DNA from: an uncultured Aminicenantes bacterium
Lineage (GTDB): Bacteria > Acidobacteriota > Aminicenantia > UBA2199
NCBI GenBank assembly: GCA_965195285.1
Contig: CBDAFS010000003.1
Span: 8,257-72,256 of the forward strand
Direction of reading: 5' to 3'
Length of the DNA stretch: 64,000 bases
A program made the position numbers and the translations under genes. Under the pieces are notes generated by a model. That model worked only from the letters and a program-made list of their open reading frames with translations, had not been told where the DNA came from and did no database searches. Shown in pieces: positions 6,520-44,291 of this stretch (position 1 is its first letter; every line of letters begins with the position of its first letter).

Positions 6520-7368
6520 TCAATCCACCGGCTGGCCAAAGGGCATGTTTGCTCTTTGAGAAAGGGGGTCCCAAAAAGGGTGTGGTTCAGGCTGTGGTGT
6601 AAATTCTACCGGGATTAAATCTTTCCCGCTTCCGGATTCCTTAAATGCTTTGACATCTTTTGAATAGGCAACGAAGCGGCCCATCGGCTCACCTTCCTTA
6701 ATAATCACCGTTGCGGAGTTATACGCTCGAACAGAAGCCCCCGGAAATACTTCAACCCTGGAATTATTGGAAGCCCTGCAGGACTGGCTTGAAGTAAAGA
6801 TATAGCCGGTTGATTTATCATGCAGATTTGTTTCAGCCCTGCAGTTACATTCCTGAATAACTTTACTGTCATTATACGCCCAGCATTGACCGCCATTCTG
6901 ATTGACCTGGGAGCGGTTCAGAGCTACAATCGCCTGACCTTCTGAGCAGGTAGCTGATCCCTTGTAAATTAAATGAGATTTTGCCCACCCAGAGAGTAAC
7001 TTCAAACATTCCTTTTTAATTTCATCGATATGAACCCAGCCGGGAATCTCAAAAGGTTGATGCCGCAACGCAAATTTCCACTGATCAAAAGGTACTAAAT
7101 AATCAGCATTGACATAACGCACCATTCCACCGGGAGCCATCCTTAAATCAACTTTGGGTCTCATCTGGCAGGCAACGAACCCCTCAAGCTGGCCAGGCCC
7201 CGCCGCCTGGACTTCATGCCAGTCAGTGAAGCCGTAAGTCTGATTTAAAAATTCCCTTTCATTAAGAAAATTGCCTCGCCTGTTATAATAATGATCAAAC
7301 CCGCCTGCCTTTTTCTTTTTTAGGATAATCAAGGCTTTTAGAAAACATTCCGACGCTGGCATGGTCAA
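6520..7368 (-). CDS. Phage-type hypothetical protein with short beta-helix-like repeats
   Basis: Repeating A-x-N/D-x-S-x-V units (ALNRSQV, AYNDSKV, ASNNSRV, AYNSATV); start overlaps the upstream stop. Confidence 0.7.
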   Translation of the reverse strand: MTMPASECFLKALIILKKKKAGGFDHYYNRRGNFLNEREFLNQTYGFTDWHEVQAAGPGQLEGFVACQMRPKVDLRMAPGGMVRYVNADYLVPFDQWKFALRHQPFEIPGWVHIDEIKKECLKLLSGWAKSHLIYKGSATCSEGQAIVALNRSQVNQNGGQCWAYNDSKVIQECNCRAETNLHDKSTGYIFTSSQSCRASNNSRVEVFPGASVRAYNSATVIIKEGEPMGRFVAYSKDVKAFKESGSGKDLIPVEFTPQPEPHPFWDPLSQRANMPFGQPVD

Positions 7369-7712
7369 TCAATTATTGGAATGGCTGGGTTTTGATTCGG
7401 ATCTGTGTAGTCAATTTCATCTGGCTTCTTTTCAGTTTCATCCGGTTCTGGTTGAAATAAATCTGAATCTGTAACGATTGCCGGGTTAAATTCCGGATTG
7501 CAATAATCAGTTTTTAGATTCAAAAATTCCTGCAAGGTTTTCATGGCCCAGCTACCCGCTTTTTCCAAAAGGACATTATCAAGGTACATTTTACCGTCTT
7601 CGTTTTGGTTCGGCCATTCTATCAACTGGCCTCCCGGAAGTTCAAGGGTGTCTGAAAATTCACCCTTTGCCTTTATCATTTGTTTTATTACGGTTTTTTC
7701 CTGTGTATACAT
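7365..7712 (-). CDS. Hypothetical protein (element)
   Basis: GAGGTG RBS, operon context, acidic Pro-rich C-terminus. Confidence 0.7.
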   Translation of the reverse strand: MYTQEKTVIKQMIKAKGEFSDTLELPGGQLIEWPNQNEDGKMYLDNVLLEKAGSWAMKTLQEFLNLKTDYCNPEFNPAIVTDSDLFQPEPDETEKKPDEIDYTDPNQNPAIPIID

Positions 7713-7723
7713 TTTATCACCTC

Positions 7724-8290
7724 TTAATTTTTCCTTATTTCCTGAGCTATAATCGCATTAAGTTTTTTCCTTTCCTCTGACAAAACCCATTCACCATTTT
7801 TTAACACATGGCCGGTTGCTTTCATTCTGATTGCCTGCTCTTCAAGTTCATAAGGTGTTTTTTCAAAACAGGCAAAGTCCTTTTTCCATACCGCCCACTT
7901 TTTATAATATGTTCCCATGGGCTTTTCCTGATCCGCAGGAATCCGTTTCCAGCCTCCTATTTTTGCAATCTCTTTTTCATGCCCCCTCATTTCCAGGGAG
8001 ACTTCCTCCAAGCGTACCCTGGCCGCATTGTATAGGCCCTGAATCCGGTTCACCTTGTCTTTTTCAATCTCGGCCTCTTTACGCTGTGTCGTTATCTTTT
8101 CCAAAGCCTCCAGCCGGGGCTTGTCTTTTTCCGCTTGCTTCTCATTTTCCTTTCTTGACTTGTCAAGCCATTTTTGATTTACATCTTTACTCTGATCTGT
8201 CATTTTGTCAAAATCAATGTCGCCAACATCCGAAGTTGAAACATTGTCTAACGGCTTTTCTTTCTTTCTGAAAATTTTTGGTACTTCCAT
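7724..8290 (-). CDS. Hypothetical coiled-coil protein (element)
   Basis: GGAGGT RBS; charged helical sequence; directly downstream of terminase. Confidence 0.75.
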   Translation of the reverse strand: MEVPKIFRKKEKPLDNVSTSDVGDIDFDKMTDQSKDVNQKWLDKSRKENEKQAEKDKPRLEALEKITTQRKEAEIEKDKVNRIQGLYNAARVRLEEVSLEMRGHEKEIAKIGGWKRIPADQEKPMGTYYKKWAVWKKDFACFEKTPYELEEQAIRMKATGHVLKNGEWVLSEERKKLNAIIAQEIRKN

Positions 8291-8313
8291 AATTTACCTC
8301 CCAGTAAATTTAT

Positions 8314-9918
8314 TTAATCTCGGTCGCTGTAGTCATGCTCCGAATCGTTGCTTGTGACTACTCGATTAATTTCATCCCCTTTCAATTCTATGATTTTGGT
8401 TTTATTCCTTTTTAAATCCCGGTCAAAACTATCATCAATTTGTGAACCGGGGCGGCCGTTCCCCATTAAACTATTGGGGCCGTATAACGATTCATTTGAA
8501 TACCCGAAATATCCGCCGCCTGATTGATTATACTTAACGGCATAAGAACAGACCGCCATTGCATTTGATAAATCGCAATGACTCCCGTCTTTTCCCCTGG
8601 GTGATATTACGGTGTCCTTTCCTGAAAGTGTTACTTTCCTTAATAAACTTAAAAGCTCATTGCGTAATCTCTCAGAATCCGGAAGCTCAATATTATTATC
8701 ACTAAATTCCGGGATCAGTAAAATAAAACATTCGCTTGCGTTTTTATCACTGTATTCAATTTTAATCCCGCACTTATCAAACGCCTCAAAAACCCACTGG
8801 CTGCCATATCGATCCGAAAGGCATTTATTAATTTTGTATGATTTCATGGTCCCTGCAAAACGTTCAGCAACCTCGCTGGGTGTCATTTTACTTTTAACAG
8901 GTATGACTTCATCCAAAAGGTCAATGATGATTTTCCCATTCTCTAAATGAGATATACATAATGAATGGCTGTTAGCCTTGCCGCCGCTCATGTCGATTCC
9001 CGCTGAATATGAAAACTCACTCTTATAAGGTAACATTTGACGGCCCGGTACGATTGCCATATCGATTGAAACTGAATTGAATAAGCTGGATATATCATCC
9101 CTGAAAATACTCTCATATTCACAAAGTCCCCTGGCTCGATCTTTTGCAATCGCCCGGTCTATTTTCTTTTGACTAAATGTCGGATTCATTTTCCTGGTAG
9201 TACTCAACCATATTAGAGTTTCAGGATCATCCTTTCCATAGTATTGATCATACATAGAAAATAAATAACCTTGACGGGAAAATGCACTTGATATACCAAT
9301 CAGTAAAGAACCCTCCATGATCCCCGGCTCCAATGCTGTAATCACTTCATCCGCTGGGTTTGCAAAGGTCTCTGCATTTTGCCAAAAGGCCAGTTCATCC
9401 AAGCATACCACCGGGCCATATAACGGGCCTCTGATTGCACGATAATCTGCTACCCGGATCATAATTTTTACCCGTCCAGAATTTAGGGTGATATCCTTTT
9501 GCCTTTCAATGTTGATCTCTTTTTTAAAGAGGGGATTTGAGTTAAGCATACCACTGATAAAATTGTATATAAGACTTGCACCCGTTTTATCCTGAGCCAA
9601 AATCGGAAGTATCAACTGTTCACCGATTGCCAGCTTATCCAGGAATTGATCTATGCTGAACAAAACTGAATATACAGATATTAGGCTTGTACAAAATGAC
9701 TTGCCTCCCTTCCTTCCTACAATAGCGTATACTTCTTTAAACTTCTGATCAGGGGGCTTTGATCTACCAGTACACTTTTTATAGATTTCATATTCCTGAT
9801 CTGTAAATGGAATGGCATATATTGACTTTAAGAAAGCCCGCCATGCAGTCCAAGTTGACATATCTTTAAACAAATAACCCAATAATCCGGGATCATCCAT
9901 ACATTCAATGATATTCAT
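8314..9918 (-). CDS. Phage terminase large subunit-like protein
   Basis: Walker A GRKGGKS, Walker B VVCLDE, motif III ISS, RNase H-like nuclease residues GIDMSGG / SDRY / HCDLSNA. Confidence 0.8.
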   Translation of the reverse strand: MNIIECMDDPGLLGYLFKDMSTWTAWRAFLKSIYAIPFTDQEYEIYKKCTGRSKPPDQKFKEVYAIVGRKGGKSFCTSLISVYSVLFSIDQFLDKLAIGEQLILPILAQDKTGASLIYNFISGMLNSNPLFKKEINIERQKDITLNSGRVKIMIRVADYRAIRGPLYGPVVCLDELAFWQNAETFANPADEVITALEPGIMEGSLLIGISSAFSRQGYLFSMYDQYYGKDDPETLIWLSTTRKMNPTFSQKKIDRAIAKDRARGLCEYESIFRDDISSLFNSVSIDMAIVPGRQMLPYKSEFSYSAGIDMSGGKANSHSLCISHLENGKIIIDLLDEVIPVKSKMTPSEVAERFAGTMKSYKINKCLSDRYGSQWVFEAFDKCGIKIEYSDKNASECFILLIPEFSDNNIELPDSERLRNELLSLLRKVTLSGKDTVISPRGKDGSHCDLSNAMAVCSYAVKYNQSGGGYFGYSNESLYGPNSLMGNGRPGSQIDDSFDRDLKRNKTKIIELKGDEINRVVTSNDSEHDYSDRD

Positions 9919-36297: not shown

Positions 36298-37437
36298 TCA
36301 ATGGAACCATTTTAATATTTGTTGTTCATATTCAATTCCCAGATGTTTTTTGACTGCATATATCTCCGCATACAAAATCTCTTCCAATCCTTTGACGAAC
36401 TCCCCGATATACTGTTCAAAATCATAATACCACACCGATTTCAGAATGGGCGTTTTCTGTATACTACCATCTGTCCCTAATGTCACTTTTTTTAAAAAAA
36501 ATGGGAGTTTTTCCACAACATCCTCAATGGATTTTGAAAGTATGGACAGGGCTATGGGCCCGATTTCCTTTGATAGGATCTTATATATCATTTCATATTT
36601 CAAATTGAAATATCCCAGGGCTTCATCAAAAGATACAAATGTACTGATGGAAATCACCCCCGCTTCTTCGGAATAGACTGACTTTTTTTTCCCTGAGGGG
36701 TCAAATCGCCTCTTTACAGGTAACTCGGCCTTTTCACTGGAAATGATCTCCAGAACCAGAAACATTAACAGTATCCTCAGGGTATCAAATTTCAGCAGCT
36801 CACTCATTTTTAAGATATCCTTGATCCTGGATTCCTTCTCTACCAGTTGAAGAATATGAAGTTCATAGGGTTTCAGCTCCAGCCCCCGGGCTGCATCCGG
36901 ATTATATAGAAACAAATGGTTGATATTTTCCAGTTTCTTAAATAGAACTTCTTCATCTTCAAAATCCCTCATACCCTCCACAATAATGGATAAAATATCA
37001 ACATCCAGGACAATGTTCTCATTGAATTCATTTTTTTCCGTCTTGATCCGGTATTCGGCATCCCCCACCTGAAAAAATGAAAAAAGCAGACACTTCAAGT
37101 GACTCTGAATGGCCTTCCAGAAGTGGTCATTACTCAGAAAGTCGAGTTCCAGTAAGGCTCTTCCAAAGCGAATTTTATTCTTTTTCATCCGCGCAGAGGC
37201 TTTCTTGGCCGTGCCCTCATCTATGATTTTTTCTCTTATCAGGTATTGTCCCAGTGTATTGTCCTCTGATCCCGAACTGGCAAAGACAATTTTACGATTT
37301 TCGACGATAATGGTGCTGATCCGGGCTTCATGATGGAGCTCGAGGGTACCTGAAATGGATTTTTTATACATGCCATATAAAATGGAGGGAAAGTCCAGAG
37401 CCTTCATCTCTCCTGAAAGTGAAAAAACGTTTTCCAT
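36298..37437 (-). CDS. DUF4388 (PatA-N-like) domain protein
   Basis: LSGEMKALDFPSIL, SGTLEL, IVFASS, LGQYLI, RFGRALLEL. Confidence 0.7.
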   Translation of the reverse strand: MENVFSLSGEMKALDFPSILYGMYKKSISGTLELHHEARISTIIVENRKIVFASSGSEDNTLGQYLIREKIIDEGTAKKASARMKKNKIRFGRALLELDFLSNDHFWKAIQSHLKCLLFSFFQVGDAEYRIKTEKNEFNENIVLDVDILSIIVEGMRDFEDEEVLFKKLENINHLFLYNPDAARGLELKPYELHILQLVEKESRIKDILKMSELLKFDTLRILLMFLVLEIISSEKAELPVKRRFDPSGKKKSVYSEEAGVISISTFVSFDEALGYFNLKYEMIYKILSKEIGPIALSILSKSIEDVVEKLPFFLKKVTLGTDGSIQKTPILKSVWYYDFEQYIGEFVKGLEEILYAEIYAVKKHLGIEYEQQILKWFH

Positions 37438-38912
37438 TAAAATATCATTGATAGTTCAAGTTGCTTTGACTTGTTGCTATCCCTTTCCACCTGGATCTGG
37501 TCCAGAATTTCTTTGGTTACATCACCGGTTGGATAAACACCTGAAAAACAGGCCTTGCAGAATGACTTGATGGATTTATTTTCTTCCCGGACCGCTTGCT
37601 CCATATCTTTGATATCCTGATATATCACCGTATCGGCATGAATCTTCAAGGCCACCTGAGCCGGGGTTGAATTCCTGGCAATAAATTCGCTTTTGGTCTG
37701 CATATCAATCCCATAGACACATGGACTGACCAGCGGTGCCGAGTAAGAGGCAAAATAAACCTTGGAGGCCCCCGCATCACGAACAATCTGGATGATGGAT
37801 CTGGAGGTGTTTCCCCTGACAATGGAATCATCCACAAGCAGGACTTTCTTGCCCTCAAACACACTGGCGATAGGACTCAATTTCTGGCTGATGGACTTTT
37901 TACGAATCTTATCGCCGGGCATGATAAAGGTTCTGCCGATATATCGATTTTTAACCAGCCCCTCCCGATAGGTCTTCTTTAAGATGCGCGCAATTTCAAT
38001 GGCTGCTGCCCGGGCTGAATCCGGTATGGGAACCACCACATCAATATCAATATTGGCCATTTTTATCTTTTTTGCCAAACGATTTCCCAGCATGACCCTG
38101 GCTTGATACACATTGATTTTGTTGAGAATTGAATCCGGACGGGCAAAATAGATATATTCAAAGATACAGGGCCTGAAAGGCTTCCGGGCTATTTTTTTTT
38201 CAAATACATTTTTTCTTTGATCGATGAATATGGCGGAGCCGTGTTCTACATCACGAATATTCCTGAATCCGATTGAATCCAGTGAAACACTTTCCGAGGC
38301 AAAGGCAAAAGAATTAACCAGTTTATCTTTTTTAATACCAAACAGCAACGGCCTCAATCCGAAGGGATCCCGAAACCCAACCATTCCGATTCCGGCAATG
38401 TACAGAACCACGGAATAACTGCCCTTAACCCTCCTGAATACATAACGCACGGCATTGAATATGAGTTCGGGCGAAATATGCTGGGAATGGAACTTTTCAA
38501 GGTATTCGGCAAAGACATGCAGGATCACCTCCACATCACAATTGGAATTGATAATCTTATGCGATTTTTCAAACAATTCCTTTTTCAGCTGCAAGAAATT
38601 GGTCACATTTCCGTTATGGGCACCACAAATTCCAAATGGAAAACTGATCCAGAAAGGCTGAGCATCTTCCACCGAACCTTCGCCAACCGTGGGATAACGG
38701 GTGTGGCCGATACCTATATTGCCCTTCAAGCGGGTGATATTGGTGCCGTCAAAAATATCTTTAACCAGACCATTCCCCCTTTTCAGATGGAAACGGCCAT
38801 CGTAAGTGAGAATTCCGGCTGAATCCTGACCTCGATGCTGAAGGGTCATCATAGCCGTATACACTTTGGCAACAACCTCTTCGTTATCAAATAATCCAAT
38901 CACACCACACAT
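37437..38912 (-). CDS. purF: Amidophosphoribosyltransferase
   Basis: Start MCGVIG (catalytic Cys), LQHRGQDSAG, GHTRY, HNGN, VDDSIVRGNT. Confidence 0.95.
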   Translation of the reverse strand: MCGVIGLFDNEEVVAKVYTAMMTLQHRGQDSAGILTYDGRFHLKRGNGLVKDIFDGTNITRLKGNIGIGHTRYPTVGEGSVEDAQPFWISFPFGICGAHNGNVTNFLQLKKELFEKSHKIINSNCDVEVILHVFAEYLEKFHSQHISPELIFNAVRYVFRRVKGSYSVVLYIAGIGMVGFRDPFGLRPLLFGIKKDKLVNSFAFASESVSLDSIGFRNIRDVEHGSAIFIDQRKNVFEKKIARKPFRPCIFEYIYFARPDSILNKINVYQARVMLGNRLAKKIKMANIDIDVVVPIPDSARAAAIEIARILKKTYREGLVKNRYIGRTFIMPGDKIRKKSISQKLSPIASVFEGKKVLLVDDSIVRGNTSRSIIQIVRDAGASKVYFASYSAPLVSPCVYGIDMQTKSEFIARNSTPAQVALKIHADTVIYQDIKDMEQAVREENKSIKSFCKACFSGVYPTGDVTKEILDQIQVERDSNKSKQLELSMIF

Positions 38913-39113
38913 GAAATGCCCTTTATACCATAATTGTTTATATCCTGAATCACAAAAAATGTCAATATTGTAATTCACAACCCCCGTCCCCTACTTAGTT
39001 GATTTCTTATCATTTTTCCTATAGTATCTTCATGAGAGTTAAGTAATTTCAATACTAATTTAATATTAATTATAAAAATAGTTATATGGCCTTATTTCAC
39101 TTTACAAATTAAA

Positions 39114-40214
39114 ATGATATTAAAAGAAAAATATGCTGTAATCGGAGCCGGATGCGGTGGGCAGGCTATAACAGGCTATCTTGCATCCATAGGCGTTGAT
39201 GTGACTTTATATAACAGGTCAAGTGACAGGATCAGACCTTTACAAAAAGAATGTTATATTGATCTGGAAGGCACCATGAAAGGGAGAGGTAAATCGCATT
39301 ATATTGGTACGGATATTTCTAGAGCTCTTGCAGGGAGAAATATTATCATGGTTGTTATAACAGCAGATGGACACAAAGAGATTGCTCAAAAGATTGCTCC
39401 ATATTTAAGTGATGGCCAGATAATCATTCTTAATCCAGGAAGGACATGTGGTGTTCTGGAATTTGATTATACACTTAGAAAATGTTGTTGTAAAGCTGAT
39501 GTTGTAGTCGCAGAAGCTAATACTTTAGTGTTTACAGTAAGAGTAAAAACTCCTGGGATTGCAACAATAAAAGGTGTAAAAAGAGAGGTTTCTGTTTCAG
39601 CATTAAATGCTAAGGATACAGCAAACCTAATTGGCAGAATTCATTCTACTTTTCCTCAATTTGTTGCTGCGACCTCTTTTTTAGAGACAAGTTTTGGTAA
39701 TATAGGAGCAATATTTCATCCTGCAATTACATTGTTGAATAAGGACAGGATTTTATCAAAGGAGACATTTGATTTCTACATAGAAGGAGTTACGAAAAAA
39801 GTTGCTGATCTTATTGAAAAAGTTGATTATGAAGCACAAAATGTAGCAAAAGCATTAGGGACAAAGTCATTGTCTGCCAGAGACTGGCTAAGTTCCAGGT
39901 ATGATCTGGAACTTTTTGATTTCTTTACCATGATAAAATCAAACCCAACCTATTATGGAATAAAGGCACCGACATCATTAAACCACAGGTACTTATGGGA
40001 AGACATTCCTACAGGACTTGTACCTATATCCTCATTTGGAAGCGCACTCGGTGTTTCAACAGAGGCGATTAATTTTCTGATTGATGAGGGTTGTAATATT
40101 TTGCAGAGAAATTTTTGGGAAGAAGGAAGAACACCTGAAAAATTGGGTTTATCTAGAGAAAATATTTTGTCAGACCTGGAAAAAATAATTGATTATAAAA
40201 AAGAGATAGCATAA
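39114..40214 (+). CDS. NAD(P)-dependent opine (octopine/nopaline) dehydrogenase family protein
   Basis: Rossmann GAGCGG; NPGR; EANT; NIGAIFHP; FYIEG; HRYLWEDIPTGL. Confidence 0.88.
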   Translation: MILKEKYAVIGAGCGGQAITGYLASIGVDVTLYNRSSDRIRPLQKECYIDLEGTMKGRGKSHYIGTDISRALAGRNIIMVVITADGHKEIAQKIAPYLSDGQIIILNPGRTCGVLEFDYTLRKCCCKADVVVAEANTLVFTVRVKTPGIATIKGVKREVSVSALNAKDTANLIGRIHSTFPQFVAATSFLETSFGNIGAIFHPAITLLNKDRILSKETFDFYIEGVTKKVADLIEKVDYEAQNVAKALGTKSLSARDWLSSRYDLELFDFFTMIKSNPTYYGIKAPTSLNHRYLWEDIPTGLVPISSFGSALGVSTEAINFLIDEGCNILQRNFWEEGRTPEKLGLSRENILSDLEKIIDYKKEIA

Positions 40215-40276
40215 ATTATTGATTTTTTAGTTAATCTGGTACTCTAAGATAATACTTTCAGATTTATAGATAAAAA

Positions 40277-42142
40277 ATGACTAATCAAATAACATTCTCT
40301 GATATAATAGGTCTGGCTAAGACAGGATTAGATGTTCATACTCTTGGATTATCATCTATTAATGAAATATTACGAGAATGCGGATTTAAAACAATAGTAA
40401 CAGATTCGATTGTTTCAAAAGCTTTTTCAGAACCGAGAGAACTTAACAATTTTATGTTAATAGAGAAATGGATTTGTGAGAATAAAATTACTGTTTTAGG
40501 ATTTAGTTACAGACTGGATATTGACGATGGTGTATTGCTATTTAAGAGACTCATGAATCAACTTGAGAAGAAAAAACTGTTGAAAGTTACCGGGGGGCAT
40601 ATTAAGAAGATTTATTTTGCAGGACTGCCGAAAGCTTGTGACATAATAAAACACATCTTCAGAAGTGAAGTAGGTGTTTTTTACGGTGATGAAACACCTA
40701 TTGAAAGCCTTCAAATTTTAGGGATTGATTCTTCCCTGGCACCCCTGGATATTATTAAGAGACACCACTATGATATTATATTAGAAGAATTTGGAAAAGA
40801 CATTATTCAAAAAGCTGATTATGTGTCAATTGAACCTGTTGACAGGTATTCGTCAAAAAACTTTGGATCAAAAAAAGAAAGACTCGTAGACAGGATAAAG
40901 CATAGCGGGGAAAACAACCTGCCTCCATTAATCAGGACGCATGCAGGTCCATATCAACAGAACAGAGATGAGGCTGTAAATCAATTTGCAGAATGGTCAC
41001 AGCAGCTTGCTAAAAATAGACTATTAGATGTGCTTTCTATAGGGACTTCACAACTATCCCAGGAGAAATTTGGAGAAAACTGGGACGGGTTGCCCAATGG
41101 CGGTGGAGTACCAATAAATTCTCCTGAAGAATATCGTATGATCTATGATGTTTCACGTCCGATGCTTGTCAGGACATATGCGGGGACGAAAAACATAAAG
41201 CAACTTGCCAGGATGTATGAGGATACAATAAATATTGCCTGGCATGCATTATCTTTATGGTGGTTTTCACAGATTGACGGAAGGGGTCCGAATTCAGTTC
41301 TTGATAACCTGAAAGAGCACTTTGATACAATTAGATATATTGCATCGACGGGTAAACCTTATGAAGCAAATGTTTCACATCACTTTGCTTTCAGGTCATC
41401 GGATGATATTAGTTACGTTGTATCTGCAGTCCTGGCAGCCAGAGTGGCAAAAAGAGTGGGAATCAAAGATTTTGTTCTTCAAATTATGTTAAACGATCCG
41501 AAATACACCTGGGGTGTAAATGATCTTGCCAAGGCAAGAGCAACTCTTGAACTTGTAAGGAAGCTTGAAGATGCGGATTTTAGGATATATCTTCAGACAA
41601 GGGCCGGACTGAATTATCTCTCTCACGAAGCAGAAAAAGCAAAGAGTCAGCTTGCTGCTGTCACTGCTTTAATGGATGATATTGAACCATTTAATATACA
41701 TAGCCCAAGTATTATTCATGTGGTTGGTTATTCCGAAGGAAGTCATTTAGCTACGCCGCAAATAATAGATGAGAGTATTCGGATTACCAGAAAGGCGCTT
41801 TATTCATATAGGCTTCTGAAAATAAAAGGCAATGTTGATGACATGTCAAGGCATCCAGATATAGAAGAGAGGATGAGTTTTCTTATTCAAGGGGCTAAAA
41901 AGGTATTAAGAACGATTGAGTACTGTATAAAGAATCCATATACGTCACAAGGATTATATGACACATTCAAAATGGGTTTTCTTCCTGTGCCCCGGTTACT
42001 GTATTGCAGGGAGGAATTTCCAGAAGCAGTGAGATGGCAAACCAAAATAAGAAATGGCGGTGTTGATATTTATGATAATAATAAAATGATGTCCCCAAAA
42101 GACAGGATGGATTATATTAAAGAAGAGGTTCTACGAAGATGA
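40277..42142 (+). CDS. Cobalamin-binding domain fused to GlmE-like TIM barrel; putative AdoCbl-dependent mutase
   Basis: DVHTLG (DxHxxG), LGFSY, YFAG B12-domain motifs; NGGGVPINSPEEYRMIYDVSRPMLVRTYAGTKNIKQLA resembles the glutamate mutase E NGFP...ARHGT region by eye. Confidence 0.7.
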   Translation: MTNQITFSDIIGLAKTGLDVHTLGLSSINEILRECGFKTIVTDSIVSKAFSEPRELNNFMLIEKWICENKITVLGFSYRLDIDDGVLLFKRLMNQLEKKKLLKVTGGHIKKIYFAGLPKACDIIKHIFRSEVGVFYGDETPIESLQILGIDSSLAPLDIIKRHHYDIILEEFGKDIIQKADYVSIEPVDRYSSKNFGSKKERLVDRIKHSGENNLPPLIRTHAGPYQQNRDEAVNQFAEWSQQLAKNRLLDVLSIGTSQLSQEKFGENWDGLPNGGGVPINSPEEYRMIYDVSRPMLVRTYAGTKNIKQLARMYEDTINIAWHALSLWWFSQIDGRGPNSVLDNLKEHFDTIRYIASTGKPYEANVSHHFAFRSSDDISYVVSAVLAARVAKRVGIKDFVLQIMLNDPKYTWGVNDLAKARATLELVRKLEDADFRIYLQTRAGLNYLSHEAEKAKSQLAAVTALMDDIEPFNIHSPSIIHVVGYSEGSHLATPQIIDESIRITRKALYSYRLLKIKGNVDDMSRHPDIEERMSFLIQGAKKVLRTIEYCIKNPYTSQGLYDTFKMGFLPVPRLLYCREEFPEAVRWQTKIRNGGVDIYDNNKMMSPKDRMDYIKEEVLRR

Positions 42143-43125
42143 AAAAATTTAAGATAGGTTTACTAAATAAAAAAAGGGGAAATTTCAGGTTGCAGGAAAA
42201 GTTTTCAGATTCTGAAGATGTTGTTGATGAGACATACAAAGAAATTGCCCATCACTATGAAGCTTTGAATAATGGAGACTATGATGTTTATACAATAGTA
42301 TGGGGACCGGAATTTATTAACGATTTGAGGAGGTTAAAAGTTGATCTTATTTTTAATGTTTCAAGTATGGTAGAAGCAGCGATACTGGAAGAGTTAGAAA
42401 TCCCTTATGTTGGTTCCGATACTTTCACAATAGCACTTGCAACGGATAAATCTTTGGCAAAAAGGATGTGGCAGAATGCAGGTTTACCGACATCTCCTTT
42501 CCATGTAGCCAGGACTGAAGCCGACTGCCAGATTTTCAAGGAGAACCCTCCTTTTGACTATCCACTTTTTATTAAGCCTTTGGCAGGTAGAGGCAGTGCC
42601 GGGATAACCAGGGAATCTGTCGTTAAAAACTATGACCAGTTAGTAAAAGGTGTACTGGAAAGATATAGAGCCATTGGGCAGCCGGTTCTGATTGAGAGAT
42701 TCCTGAAAGGTAGGGAAATAACATTCGGTATTTTAAATAATGATGAAGATATAAGGTCACTCCCACCTTTAGAGGTTGCTTATCGTGAAGGTGATATTAC
42801 CCTGACGTTTGAGAAGAAAGAAATGGATAATGATAATTTTTTCTGTCCGGCAAGACTAACAGATGAAGAGACATCGGATATGCAATCGCTGGCAATTAAG
42901 GCTTACAAAGTACTGGGTTTCAGGGATTATGGAAGGATTGATACCATATTAACAGAAGACGGCCCCTTTCTTCTTGAAGGAAATACTTTTGCAGGTTTAA
43001 TGTGTACACCTGAAGAAAAACCTCATAGTTATATAGGATTTATGGCTGTTGCAGAAGGAAAAGGCGGCGAGGAGTTGCTTGATGAAATAATACAGGGTGC
43101 AGTAAAGAGGTATAATTTAAAATAG
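42139..43125 (+). CDS. ATP-grasp ligase (D-Ala-D-Ala ligase-like fold)
   Basis: IPYVGS, DKSLAK, YPLFIKP..GRGSAGI, LIERFLKGREIT, YGRIDT, LEGNTFAG; ATGA overlap with upstream gene. Confidence 0.85.
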   Translation: MKKFKIGLLNKKRGNFRLQEKFSDSEDVVDETYKEIAHHYEALNNGDYDVYTIVWGPEFINDLRRLKVDLIFNVSSMVEAAILEELEIPYVGSDTFTIALATDKSLAKRMWQNAGLPTSPFHVARTEADCQIFKENPPFDYPLFIKPLAGRGSAGITRESVVKNYDQLVKGVLERYRAIGQPVLIERFLKGREITFGILNNDEDIRSLPPLEVAYREGDITLTFEKKEMDNDNFFCPARLTDEETSDMQSLAIKAYKVLGFRDYGRIDTILTEDGPFLLEGNTFAGLMCTPEEKPHSYIGFMAVAEGKGGEELLDEIIQGAVKRYNLK

Positions 43126-43185
43126 ACAATTTGGCATGTCAGTACCCAGGATTGAGATCAATCTAAAAAAAATACAATGGTTAAA

Positions 43186-43256
43186 TGGAGCCAAGCGGAG
43201 TCGAACCGCCATCTTAGCCTTGCGAAGGCTATGTTCTCCCATTAAACTATGGCCCC
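43186..43256 (-). tRNA. tRNA-Ala(CGC), short atypical body
   Basis: GGGGCCATAGTTTAATGGGAGAACATAGCCTT-CGC-AAGGCTAAGATGGCGGTTCGACTCCGCTTGGCTCCA; G3:U70 and A73; 71 nt; CCA not encoded. Confidence 0.9.
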
Positions 43257-43280
43257 AATAAAGTTTTTTTATGCCGCGGG

Positions 43281-44291
43281 TCAAAAAGGATCGCAACTCT
43301 GAATCAAACCACTCACTTCATTCCATTTTTGATCATTCATTTTTGCCCCGATCACCTCAACCACTTTTCCACCCACACAGGCTCCCATTTTTCCGGATAT
43401 CTCCACCGAATAACCATTCATGAGACCGTACATAAAACCCGCCGCATACAGATCACCCGCTCCGGTGGTATCAAGGGCCTGAATTGAAATCGGCTCTATT
43501 CGGTATTGTTGGGATTCATGCTGGATGAAAGATCCACTTTCCCCGCATTTTACCACCGCAATCCTGCACTGTTTGGCAATTTCCCTCAGGGCTTCCCGGG
43601 GATTTTCTTTTCCGGTGAAAGTCCGGGCTTCATCTTCATTGGCCAGTACAATATCCACATATTTACCCACTATATAATCAAGATATTCCCTGTTTTCCTC
43701 AACCGTGCCAAAACTCGAAAAATCCATGACAATTTCAAGCCCGGCATCTTTGGATGATTGAAAAACCTTTTCAAGCATTTCTCGGTAGGGTATCAGATAA
43801 GCTTCAACCAGTAAATAATCATAGTTTTTAAATATATCACCGCCAATATCGCACATGAACAACTCATTGGCAGCTCCCAGATAGGTGGCCATGGTTCTCT
43901 CGGTATCCGTAGAAATCAGAGAAATCGACTTTCCGGTCTCTAACTCGCCTTTAAAGAGATGGGCCTGAATGGAGTTGGAAGCCATATCGGACTGAAAAAA
44001 ACTGCCAAACTCATCATTGCCGATGGTTCCGATAAAGCCGACCGGTACTCCCAGTCGAGCCAAACCGCTAACCGTATTGGCAGAAGATCCGCCACTGGAT
44101 TTATGATGCTCCAAATGGGCGGTTTTTTCCAGTATGTGCCTTACTTTTTCTTTTTCAATCAGGGTCATTCCCCCCTTGGATAATCCCAATTCATCCAAAA
44201 GGCTGTCATCATCAATTTGAATCAGGATATCCACCAGGGCATTTCCGATTCCCAGTAACCGTTTCCGGTTATCTTTCTGCCCGGGATTCAT
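43281..44291 (-). CDS. PfkB-family carbohydrate/adenosine kinase
   Basis: GIGNALVD, SGGSSANT, ANEDEA, DTTGAGDLYAAGF. Confidence 0.9.
   Translation of the reverse strand: MNPGQKDNRKRLLGIGNALVDILIQIDDDSLLDELGLSKGGMTLIEKEKVRHILEKTAHLEHHKSSGGSSANTVSGLARLGVPVGFIGTIGNDEFGSFFQSDMASNSIQAHLFKGELETGKSISLISTDTERTMATYLGAANELFMCDIGGDIFKNYDYLLVEAYLIPYREMLEKVFQSSKDAGLEIVMDFSSFGTVEENREYLDYIVGKYVDIVLANEDEARTFTGKENPREALREIAKQCRIAVVKCGESGSFIQHESQQYRIEPISIQALDTTGAGDLYAAGFMYGLMNGYSVEISGKMGACVGGKVVEVIGAKMNDQKWNEVSGLIQSCDPF

Follow-up and report, generated by a model that had tools for sequence, protein, structure and literature searches.

Positions 39114-43125 on the forward strand of a 64,000-nucleotide stretch of DNA from an uncultured Aminicenantes bacterium (contig CBDAFS010000003.1; the whole stretch is called here the window, and its genome G000) hold a cassette of three genes. 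In this order, they encode an opine dehydrogenase (ODH, P0001, 366 aa), a single-chain protein resembling adenosylcobalamin (AdoCbl) dependent mutases (P0002, 621 aa, 40277-42142) and an ATP-grasp ligase with the Ddl fold (P0003, 328 aa). On balance, the cassette is probably a horizontally acquired operon that carries a widespread module of an ODH and a single-chain AdoCbl mutase and makes a salt-related solute of the opine type. The first-pass annotation of this DNA had listed the genes as mutase, ligase and dehydrogenase, an order that has to be corrected to the one given above; its three family assignments were confirmed, by PF02317 and PDB 1bg6 for the ODH, by Dala_Dala_lig_C for the ligase and by fold for the mutase.

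The conservation of the module was examined in 21 loci from species-representative genomes and 80 loci from metagenomes (101 together). For the mutase, 2727 homologues were scored. The best 120 span many phyla at 53-95% identity, and none of them bears a name more specific than 'cobalamin-binding protein'; across phyla the family keeps at least 60% identity and approximately 100 invariant residues. The ODH gene is found directly upstream of the mutase gene in 17 of the 18 genome loci having upstream DNA, and in 54 of the 57 metagenome loci with at least 1100 bp upstream it immediately precedes the mutase gene on the same strand. Furthermore, among 60 relatives of the window's genome, eight show a mutase match, which correspond to three close orthologues and to a subfamily 27-35% identical over near-full-length matches, and the ODH precedes the mutase in all six of the relatives' loci with upstream DNA, the distant subfamily included. 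Since the pairing is kept even at 27-35% identity, the ODH-mutase pair is the old and obligatory core of the module, and the amide-forming enzyme is a frequent, exchangeable addition. Indeed, the ligase gene follows the mutase gene in 18 of the 21 genome loci, with an Ala_racemase_N gene coming next in 11 of them; in the metagenome loci with room downstream (n = 54), a ligase is found in 15, an AsnB-like gene in 14 and neither in 25, and a racemase gene follows the ligase gene in 11 of 13 metagenome loci. The cassette racemase is of the pyridoxal phosphate (PLP) fold-type III and Orr-like (NF040742, 413.6 bits for a cut-off of 480). In the distant subfamily an AsnB-like gene stands after the mutase gene, and Ser, not Cys, is the first residue after Met in its product. 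A search of gene neighbourhoods had been proposed together with the first reading of the operon, and on this point it agrees with that reading: the three families are conserved neighbours in many phyla.

The single genome locus that departs from the pairing (L002; loci are numbered with an L throughout) lies at 6974-8866 on an Aenigmatarchaeota chromosome, where the mutase is 62% identical and has one in-frame stop, with no ODH or ligase gene nearby. Gene decay or an error of sequencing probably explains this copy.

The ODH was compared with its characterised relatives. P0001 matches PF02317 over residues 186-328 (131.9 bits, cut-off 30), and its residues 2-347 align with N-(1-D-carboxyethyl)-L-norvaline dehydrogenase (CENDH, also ArODH; 1bg6) with an E value of 5e-69. 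It displays a Rossmann motif of the GxGxxG type (G11-A-G-C-G-G16), and the counterparts of H202, R292 and D297 in 1bg6 are the same residues; following the numbering of the 1bg6 literature, we take R292 to be the catalytic-site Arg. The likeness to ArODH/CENDH is hence that of an end-to-end alignment with shared catalytic residues. Moreover, R110, G198, H202, R292 and D297 are present in all 20 aligned mutase-linked ODHs. R110 and G198 of P0001 occupy, in the alignment with 1bg6, the two specificity positions of Telek 2024, and N34 and S36 are found where ArODH has two Asp residues, which are positions of cofactor preference (NADPH type).

Telek 2024 (PMC10787698) describes the catalytic His-Asp dyad of ODHs and the characterisation of six metagenomic ODHs (mODHs), which differ from ArODH in preferring L-Asp, L-Glu and sulfonate analogues, use pyruvate and for the most part prefer NADPH. 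As also reported there, an Arg at ArODH position 111 together with a Gly at position 198 sets the preference for acids and double swaps exchanged specificity, and the mODH kinetics on L-Asp are given as a KM of 24.8 mM, a kcat of 0.9 per s and a kcat/KM of 0.04 per s per mM (PMC10787698). The text of that paper makes no mention of cobalamin, of an operon or of a gene cluster. The likeness of P0001 to the mODHs resides in R110, G198, N34 and S36 and, judged by the two determinant residues, P0001 would belong to the acid-preferring mODH subclass, its substrate being suggested by the experiments on these relatives. The poor kinetics on L-Asp fit either a different native acidic substrate or an enzyme made for very high pools of acidic amino acids.

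The second protein, P0002, has a candidate B12-binding domain at its N-terminus. The Pfam B12-binding profile (PF02310) gives 20.1 bits on residues 12-109 (cut-off 32.1), the same domain reaches 45-47 bits in the distant subfamily, and the motif D19-x-H21-x-x-G24 (DxHxxG) is present, with H21 and G24 invariant and D19 nearly so among 28 homologues. P0002 has no NCBIfam match. The AlphaFold2 model of the protein (mean pLDDT 90.3) finds the glutamate mutase epsilon-subunit chain 1cb7_B as its best Foldseek match (E 2e-12), and a structural alignment with VIA superposes residues 195-613 on this GlmE chain with a Z of 28.1 and an rmsd of 3.3 Å over 379 residues. The runners-up are KamD of lysine 5,6-aminomutase (Z 26.6), OraE of ornithine 4,5-aminomutase (Z 24.9) and methylmalonyl-CoA mutase (MCM, Z 19.5), and a search with a protein language model gave the same glutamate-mutase lead. 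According to the predicted fold, P0002 is clearly a glutamate-mutase-like barrel. When the 28 homologues are read on the model, each of the eight predicted barrel strands has invariant polar residues at its C-terminal end, these residues being R220, H222, R299, H323, E363, N365, H368, Q402, N406, Q440, R442, H481 and E487.

Regarding known systems, P0002 shares with glutamate mutase GlmS + GlmE (1cb7, 6h9e) the best fold match and a B12 Rossmann domain with DxHxxG, but differs from it by being one chain whose N-terminal domain is the B12 domain, by an identity of 13%, by a replaced mid-pocket segment and by its partner, which is an ODH instead of the methylaspartase that accompanies GlmS/GlmE. 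The barrel matches KamDE/OraSE (8t0v, 1xrs, 3kow) nearly as well (Z 24-27), and an Orr-like racemase stands beside many cassette operons, as Orr presumably accompanies OraSE. However, there is no invariant or nearly invariant Lys in residues 1-150 of P0002 among the 28 homologues, and the lysine that holds PLP in KamDE/OraSE is taken by us to sit in the B12/Rossmann domain, which argues against an aminomutase of the PLP type; the domain order is not the same either.

At the residue level, the P0002 family was aligned by hhalign with ordinary and fused GlmS-GlmE proteins of related genomes, which the Pfam GlmE model does recognise, and the two are collinear over 240-310 columns at a probability of only 1-4%. 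In this low-confidence alignment, the invariant R230 and R299 of P0002 fall on two of three GlmE Arg positions, assumed here to be the glutamate-binding residues, and the third is Ser or Gln; the invariant E487 falls on a GlmE Glu that presumably binds the adenosyl ribose. Again at low confidence, the third Arg of GlmE and its Glu171/Tyr181 segment, which we take to hold the amino group, are replaced by an invariant segment, W322-H323...W328-W329-F330...D334-R336.

These comparisons bear on the order of the steps. The fused enzyme could be a glutamate mutase, or a close analogue, that converts a free acidic amino acid into a branched one such as 3-methylaspartate, which the ODH would N-carboxyethylate and the ligase extend. 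GlmE being the best fold match of P0002, the coincidence of R230, R299 and E487 with GlmE positions taken to be functional (in the hhalign alignment of 1-4% probability) and the poor mODH kinetics on L-Asp, as would be the case for an enzyme whose true substrate is another, related acidic amino acid, all speak for such an enzyme. Nevertheless, we regard this explanation as rather unlikely, given that the third Arg and the Glu171/Tyr181 segment give way to the invariant W322-H323...R336 segment, that fused GlmS-GlmE proteins recognised by Pfam (~ 400 bits) exist in the same bacterial family, so that a plain glutamate mutase need not diverge so far, and that the strict pairing with the ODH would be left unexplained.

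Single-chain GlmS-GlmE fusions of 645-673 aa were seen in genomes of the same family (L024, L025, L026, L028 and L032; Met_asp_mut_E at ~ 400 bits). They have an N-terminal DxHxxG domain and form a separate glutamate-mutase-like family, distinct from P0002.

The pathway that we favour begins with the ODH, which would join pyruvate reductively, with NADPH, to an acidic L-amino acid of the Asp/Glu type and yield an N-(1-D-carboxyethyl) amino acid, as its relatives suggest. The fused B12 enzyme would then carry out a radical 1,2-rearrangement, a reaction to which its fold, the His-on motif and the conserved barrel pocket point. The favoured substrate of this enzyme would be the opine delivered by the ODH, because the pocket appears rebuilt compared to glutamate mutase and the mutase is almost never found without the ODH; the reverse order, with a branched acid formed first and capped by the ODH, is nearly as likely. 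The Ddl-type ligase would activate a carboxylate with ATP and form an amide with a second amine, judging from its fold and its ATP/Mg residues, and in the four-gene versions this second amine would probably be a D-amino acid supplied by the Orr-like racemase, whose gene is not in the window cassette. As the name of the enzyme implies, the arm that a CENDH-type opine receives from pyruvate is in the D configuration and would therefore make the opine an N-substituted D-alanine, and such a D-alanine-like arm may be the rationale for recruiting a Ddl-type ligase and a racemase.

If the B12 enzyme acts on an N-(1-carboxyethyl) acidic amino acid, that is a secondary-amine polycarboxylate, it would represent a class of AdoCbl rearrangement not yet described; we put this forward as a tentative proposal. 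The rearrangement could turn the 1-carboxyethyl arm into a 2-carboxyethyl arm or branch the Asp/Glu skeleton, and the amide former (Ddl-type here, a Cys-less AsnB elsewhere) would cap or cyclise the product. The score of an ODH-mutase complex prediction was 0.00 (mark 0.32), which gives no verdict and counts for neither side, and no fused forms were found at E<=1e-20 among proteins of 1088-3105 aa, which is weak evidence. A CobA-type corrinoid adenosyltransferase is encoded in the window's genome. The earlier picture of a mutase that rearranges, a ligase that joins and a dehydrogenase that caps is retained as far as one conserved small-molecule pathway is concerned; the order of its steps finds no support, the ligase being dispensable in the 25 of 54 loci that have no amide former.

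The comparison with pyrrolysine synthesis that had accompanied this picture turned out to be formal. PylB/PylC/PylD indeed share with the cassette the logic of a mutase, an ATP-grasp ligase and a dehydrogenase, but the cassette mutase is of the B12 type, with no Radical_SAM domain in any of the three proteins, the dehydrogenase is an ODH and thus of another family, and the ligase folds nearest to Ddl/VanA. No PylC model is among the 25 best of 52 NCBIfam matches of the ligase, and a family beyond these 25 is possible.

The ligase P0003 scores 93 bits with Pfam Dala_Dala_lig_C, and 125.4 bits (protein) or 124.7 bits (genome search) with TIGR01205, for which the cut-off is 245.65 and the canonical Ddl of the same genome, on another contig (C14), reaches 342.1 bits. 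Its fold corresponds to a complete three-domain Ddl/VanA (Z 28-31, 22-28% identity), and its 50 best fold matches are all Ddl/VanA. In the P0003 family, compared with the Ddl of the same genome, the His loop and the Glu-containing motif of the N-terminal part are absent or deleted, a Glu replaces the Tyr that follows the catalytic Lys of Ddl, and six residues are inserted before a conserved Ser; meanwhile, the ATP/Mg residues (Lys, Arg, Asp, Asn, Ser) are kept. Thus P0003 shares with D-Ala-D-Ala ligase/VanA the whole fold and the ATP/Mg residues and differs from them by the missing motifs of the first D-Ala site and by a score below the TIGR01205 cut-off. From its sequence, P0003 is not the housekeeping Ddl. 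The first-pass annotation had named a ligase making D-Ala-D-Ala and nothing else as a case against its pathway, and the score below cut-off, the lost first-D-Ala motifs and the separate Ddl gene point away from that case.

Some cassettes of the Bacteroidales type and of Victivallaceae (L009, 3434-4387; L013, 8859-9944; L066, 6965-7879; L122, 6979-7929) encode, between the mutase and ligase genes, a second Ddl-like ATP-grasp that is divergent from P0003 (26-30% identity).

A Ddl fold might also indicate a building block of the cell envelope, such as a peptide with D-amino acids or an acidic group that decorates peptidoglycan, capsule or a different surface polymer. Besides the ligase fold, the Orr-like racemase gene after the ligase gene in 11 of 13 loci would suit this role, and sugar-nucleotide genes lie near single loci (an epimerase in L002, a DegT aminotransferase in L127). 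However, no recurrent glycosyltransferase, Mur-type ligase or flippase is found among the neighbours of the 101 loci, the flanks in the window are purF, a tRNA and pantothenate genes, and the salt and c-di-AMP riboswitches and channel genes described below would have no explanation, which makes an envelope component improbable.

The racemase and the ODH together also recall opine-type metallophores like staphylopine and pseudopaline, which are built by a racemase, a backbone enzyme and an ODH. In this comparison, an ODH performing the last reductive condensation and a racemase in the four-gene versions would be the counterparts of CntM and CntK, and a polycarboxylate secondary amine would chelate metals. 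This role is nevertheless very improbable: according to Pfam scans of cluster representatives, neither the cassette nor its recurrent neighbours include a nicotianamine-synthase-like (CntL) gene, an importer or an exporter, the racemase is Orr-like and of PLP fold-type III, not DapF-like, and Rfam scans of the window and of related loci gave no metal-responsive element.

The link to salt comes from a sister clade of the module. A riboswitch lies upstream on the same strand in 10 of its 19 loci, 0.2-1.4 kb before the ODH-homologous region, and these are two c-di-AMP aptamers (87 bits) and eight nhaA-I elements (44-56 bits, gathering score 37). In White 2022 (PMC9646797), nhaA-I is presented as a validated Li+-I ON riboswitch with weak Na+ affinity, associated with genes that concern osmotic stress and cation transport. 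All four ODH genes of nhaA-I operons that were scanned with Pfam encode a fusion of the ODH with a PTS EIIA(Ntr)-type domain; furthermore, a gene for an MscS-type channel stands between the mutase gene and the AsnB-like gene in four loci, and a Na+/H+ exchanger gene is near the cassette in three. Two arrangements bridge these sister-clade features to the ligase-type operons. L096 (2596-8876) combines, in this order, nhaA-I, an EIIA-ODH fusion, an AsnB-like protein, the mutase and a ligase 67% identical to P0003; with both amide formers present, some products may carry two amide bonds. L119 and L120 encode, in this order, an ODH, a protein like mechanosensitive (MS) channels, the mutase, the ligase and the racemase.

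In light of these features, the product would most likely be a small, highly polar, amino-acid-derived solute made under salt or osmotic stress. A salt-stress solute appears as the best-supported physiology, and its basis is the riboswitches and channel genes of the sister operons, not the window. Indeed, no riboswitch was found in the window between 38000 and 44000 (Rfam, E<=1), nor any Rfam family at E<=1 in 38979-39113; near the spacer that separates the ODH gene from the mutase gene, the one match is an sRNA at 40104-40154, weak and at chance level (E 0.66), and none reaches its gathering score. When 10 upstream regions were aligned (the window and nine related loci), no conserved leader appeared (mean column identity 33%), and two sets of mostly ligase-type loci, with 14 and 16 scanned, contained no riboswitch. 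A scan of the locus for promoters and terminators gave matches to consensus only, and the one terminator-like hairpin lies inside the ODH gene, the count being below that in shuffled sequences. The sequencing runs that hold the cassette are metagenomes of marine sediment and cold seeps. In two metatranscriptome libraries, contigs match portions of each of the three genes, one of these contigs bridging the mutase/ligase overlap and none lying on the purF part, which gives a hint of expression.

The same riboswitches bear on a catabolic role, in which the ODH would oxidise an opine or N-carboxyalkyl amino acid from the environment, the mutase then feeding the freed amino acid into fermentation. 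It is generally known that ODHs catalyse reversible reactions and that the classical role of glutamate mutase is a catabolic one. Such a role gives, however, no use to a ligase that consumes ATP or to an amide synthetase of the AsnB-like kind, genes for a methylaspartase, a transporter or a thiolase are not recurrent among the neighbours, and salt-activated ON riboswitches fit synthesis better; hence we give it very little credence. Nor was a matching characterised pathway found in the literature, a match to a known catabolic route being another case that the first reading had set against itself.

A parallel among osmolytes is the pathway of N-acetylglutaminylglutamine amide (NAGGN), made by the ATP-grasp Ngg and the AsnB-like AsnO. 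The likeness lies in an osmolyte derived from acidic amino acids by an ATP-grasp enzyme and an AsnB-like amide former; it differs in that the AsnB-like protein of the cassette type scores 108 bits for a TIGR03104 cut-off of 570, and that NAGGN involves neither an ODH nor a B12 enzyme.

The position of the cassette in the genome suggests how it arrived. In the congener G001, whose purF is 82% identical, the genes run panD-pfkB-tRNA-Ala(cgc)-purF with ~ 105 bp from the tRNA to purF and without the cassette, so that the cassette amounts to an indel of 4.1 kb, located 3' of the tRNA; the alignment with this empty site shows partial similarity for ~ 50 nt past the tRNA. In another congener (G002), a cassette 91% identical is found, but beside efflux genes, and two further members of the genus (91% and 87% complete) have no mutase match. 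An independent sample, run X2, has the same purF-cassette-tRNA arrangement. A FastTree phylogeny, without support values, was computed from a mafft alignment of 98 mutases, leaving out five of the 21 genome loci (partial or with a stop) and two of the 80 metagenome loci (short matches). The window groups in this tree with ligase-type cassettes, and near-identical cassettes are found in Bacteroidales, Spirochaetales, Chlorobiota, Victivallaceae, Cloacimonadota, Desulfuromonadaceae and others.

The composition and layout of the locus agree with what had been read from the sequence at first, namely three co-oriented genes with a 62-bp gap and an ATGA overlap in an AT-rich block, opposite in strand to all neighbours and placed between purF and the 3' end of a tRNA gene. 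The mutase and ligase genes overlap by 4 bp, the ATG of the ligase starting at 42139 and the mutase stop ending at 42142. By region, the GC content is 0.30-0.41 inside the cassette and 0.42-0.47 outside, with an overall value of 0.370 for the cassette versus 0.407 for the rest of the window, and the GC3 of the three genes is 0.245, 0.304 and 0.319 versus 0.479 for purF and 0.457 for pfkB. All the neighbouring ORFs are on the reverse strand (purF, 37437-38978; pfkB, 43281-44291; panD, panC and panB), and the 3' end of tRNA-Ala(cgc) points towards the ligase stop. We consider that the window cassette was probably acquired horizontally as a three-gene operon. The window's copy is otherwise ordinary and is of interest because it shows cleanly a recent acquisition next to a tRNA gene.

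A tRNA or tmRNA gene also adjoins the cassette in L013 (5244-5317), L016 (5309-5509) and L062 (3455-3815, tmRNA). Such tRNA-adjacent cassettes in several unrelated genomes fit an island-like insertion, and no integrase gene was seen.

The combination of genes, which the first-pass annotation had called undescribed, was in fact predicted in 2009. Zhang, Rodionov, Gelfand and Gladyshev (BMC Genomics 10:78, PMC2667541) report a novel B12-dependent family from 11 genomes, with a distant B12-binding domain at its N-terminal end, always beside a pfam02317 octopine/nopaline dehydrogenase and with a D-Ala:D-Ala ligase or an asparagine synthase nearby, the fold and function of the catalytic part being left unassigned there. 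The cassette belongs to the same family and has the same context. What is new here is the assignment of the barrel to the GlmE/KamD/OraE type, the ODH subclass and the links to riboswitches and channels. In the searchable literature, no publication was found that joins an opine dehydrogenase with glutamate mutase, with cobalamin and ATP-grasp, or with ydaO. Nor did a relevant one emerge that connects an adenosylcobalamin mutase with a compatible solute.

Several points weigh against a salt-related, opine-type product made by an AdoCbl mutase. Regarding the mutase, its B12-binding domain scores below the Pfam cut-off, PF06368 (Met_asp_mut_E) has no match at E<=0.01 on P0002 or anywhere in G000, and phmmer together with a profile of the 28 homologues retrieved no GlmE chain from the PDB sequences but only chance matches; the comparison of residues with GlmE rests on the hhalign alignment of 1-4% probability. 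Neither a MutL-type reactivase (PF13941) nor a PduO-type adenosyltransferase was found in G000, which is 94.87% complete, and a MutL/GlmL reactivase is not among the recurrent neighbours of the cassette either. Given the poor mODH kinetics on L-Asp, the true substrate of the ODH may be another acidic amino acid. The amide step is not universal, with neither a ligase nor an AsnB-like gene downstream in 25 of 54 loci, and no exporter or importer is conserved with the module among the recurrent neighbours. As for the salt link, it is borrowed from a clade whose mutases are 50-54% identical, and a riboswitch at gathering score occurs in only one of 25 ligase-bearing loci scanned and not in the window. 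Moreover, assembled contigs cannot prove transcription, and no later characterisation of the family was found in the searchable literature, which here excludes the supplementary tables of White 2022 and Telek 2024.

The B12-dependent isomerases are a small and well-counted set of enzymes, and the mutase family of the cassette, an orphan since its prediction in 2009, has thousands of members in many anaerobic phyla. Its links to the acid-preferring ODH subclass, to c-di-AMP and Li+/Na+ riboswitches and to mechanosensitive channels make it directly testable. If the proposed pathway is true, the known B12 reactions would gain a new one, and a new family of salt-stress solutes would be widespread among anaerobic bacteria and archaea, probably with a new compatible solute in anaerobes of sediment and gut.

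The features of the locus are collected in the table, with the landmarks of the insertion site.

Features of the cassette and of its insertion site, in positions of the window
Feature	Position	Strand	Basis
Divergent, AT-rich intergenic region (135 bp) separating purF from the ODH gene, presumed promoter region of the cassette	38979-39113		Sequence read
Opine dehydrogenase (P0001), CENDH/ArODH type, putatively of the acid-preferring subclass	39114-40214	+	PF02317; match to 1bg6
Spacer between the ODH and mutase genes (62 bp)	40215-40276		ORF listing
Mutase (P0002), predicted N-terminal cobalamin-binding Rossmann domain, ~ residues 1-150	40277-40726	+	D19-x-H21-x-x-G24; Pfam below threshold
Mutase (P0002), predicted glutamate-mutase-E-like TIM barrel, ~ residues 195-613, and C-terminal tail	40859-42142	+	AlphaFold2; Foldseek
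Ligase (P0003), Ddl-fold ATP-grasp, 328 aa; apparent paralogue, not the housekeeping D-Ala-D-Ala ligase	42139-43125	+	Pfam; TIGR01205; fold
Spacer between the ligase stop and the tRNA-Ala 3' end (59 bp), one edge of the indel	43126-43184		Alignment with the empty site
tRNA-Ala(cgc), landmark of the insertion site, outside the pathway	43185-43257	-	ARAGORN; Rfam tRNA, 66.5 bits

On the other side of the cassette, a DUF4388 gene (36298-37437, reverse strand) comes directly after purF, and this pairing is kept in five related genomes. Elsewhere, a gene for a B12-binding radical-SAM protein is located just after the racemase gene in L008 (10907-12298), and a homologue of it lies ~ 3.8 kb downstream on the opposite strand in L021 (8384-9394).

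The racemase was also considered as a missing fourth gene of the window's operon and rejected, the genome's only Orr-like gene being on another contig, beside a RimK-like ligase gene, and treated as a separate cluster. This second, uncharacterised cluster of G000 is located on contig C55 (L033, 6628-11313) and encodes a DHO_dh-like protein, a RimK/MptN-like ATP-grasp, an Orr-like racemase and an NMO-like FMN enzyme. The racemase of this cluster reaches 358 bits with NF040742 and is 47% identical to a racemase of the cassette type.

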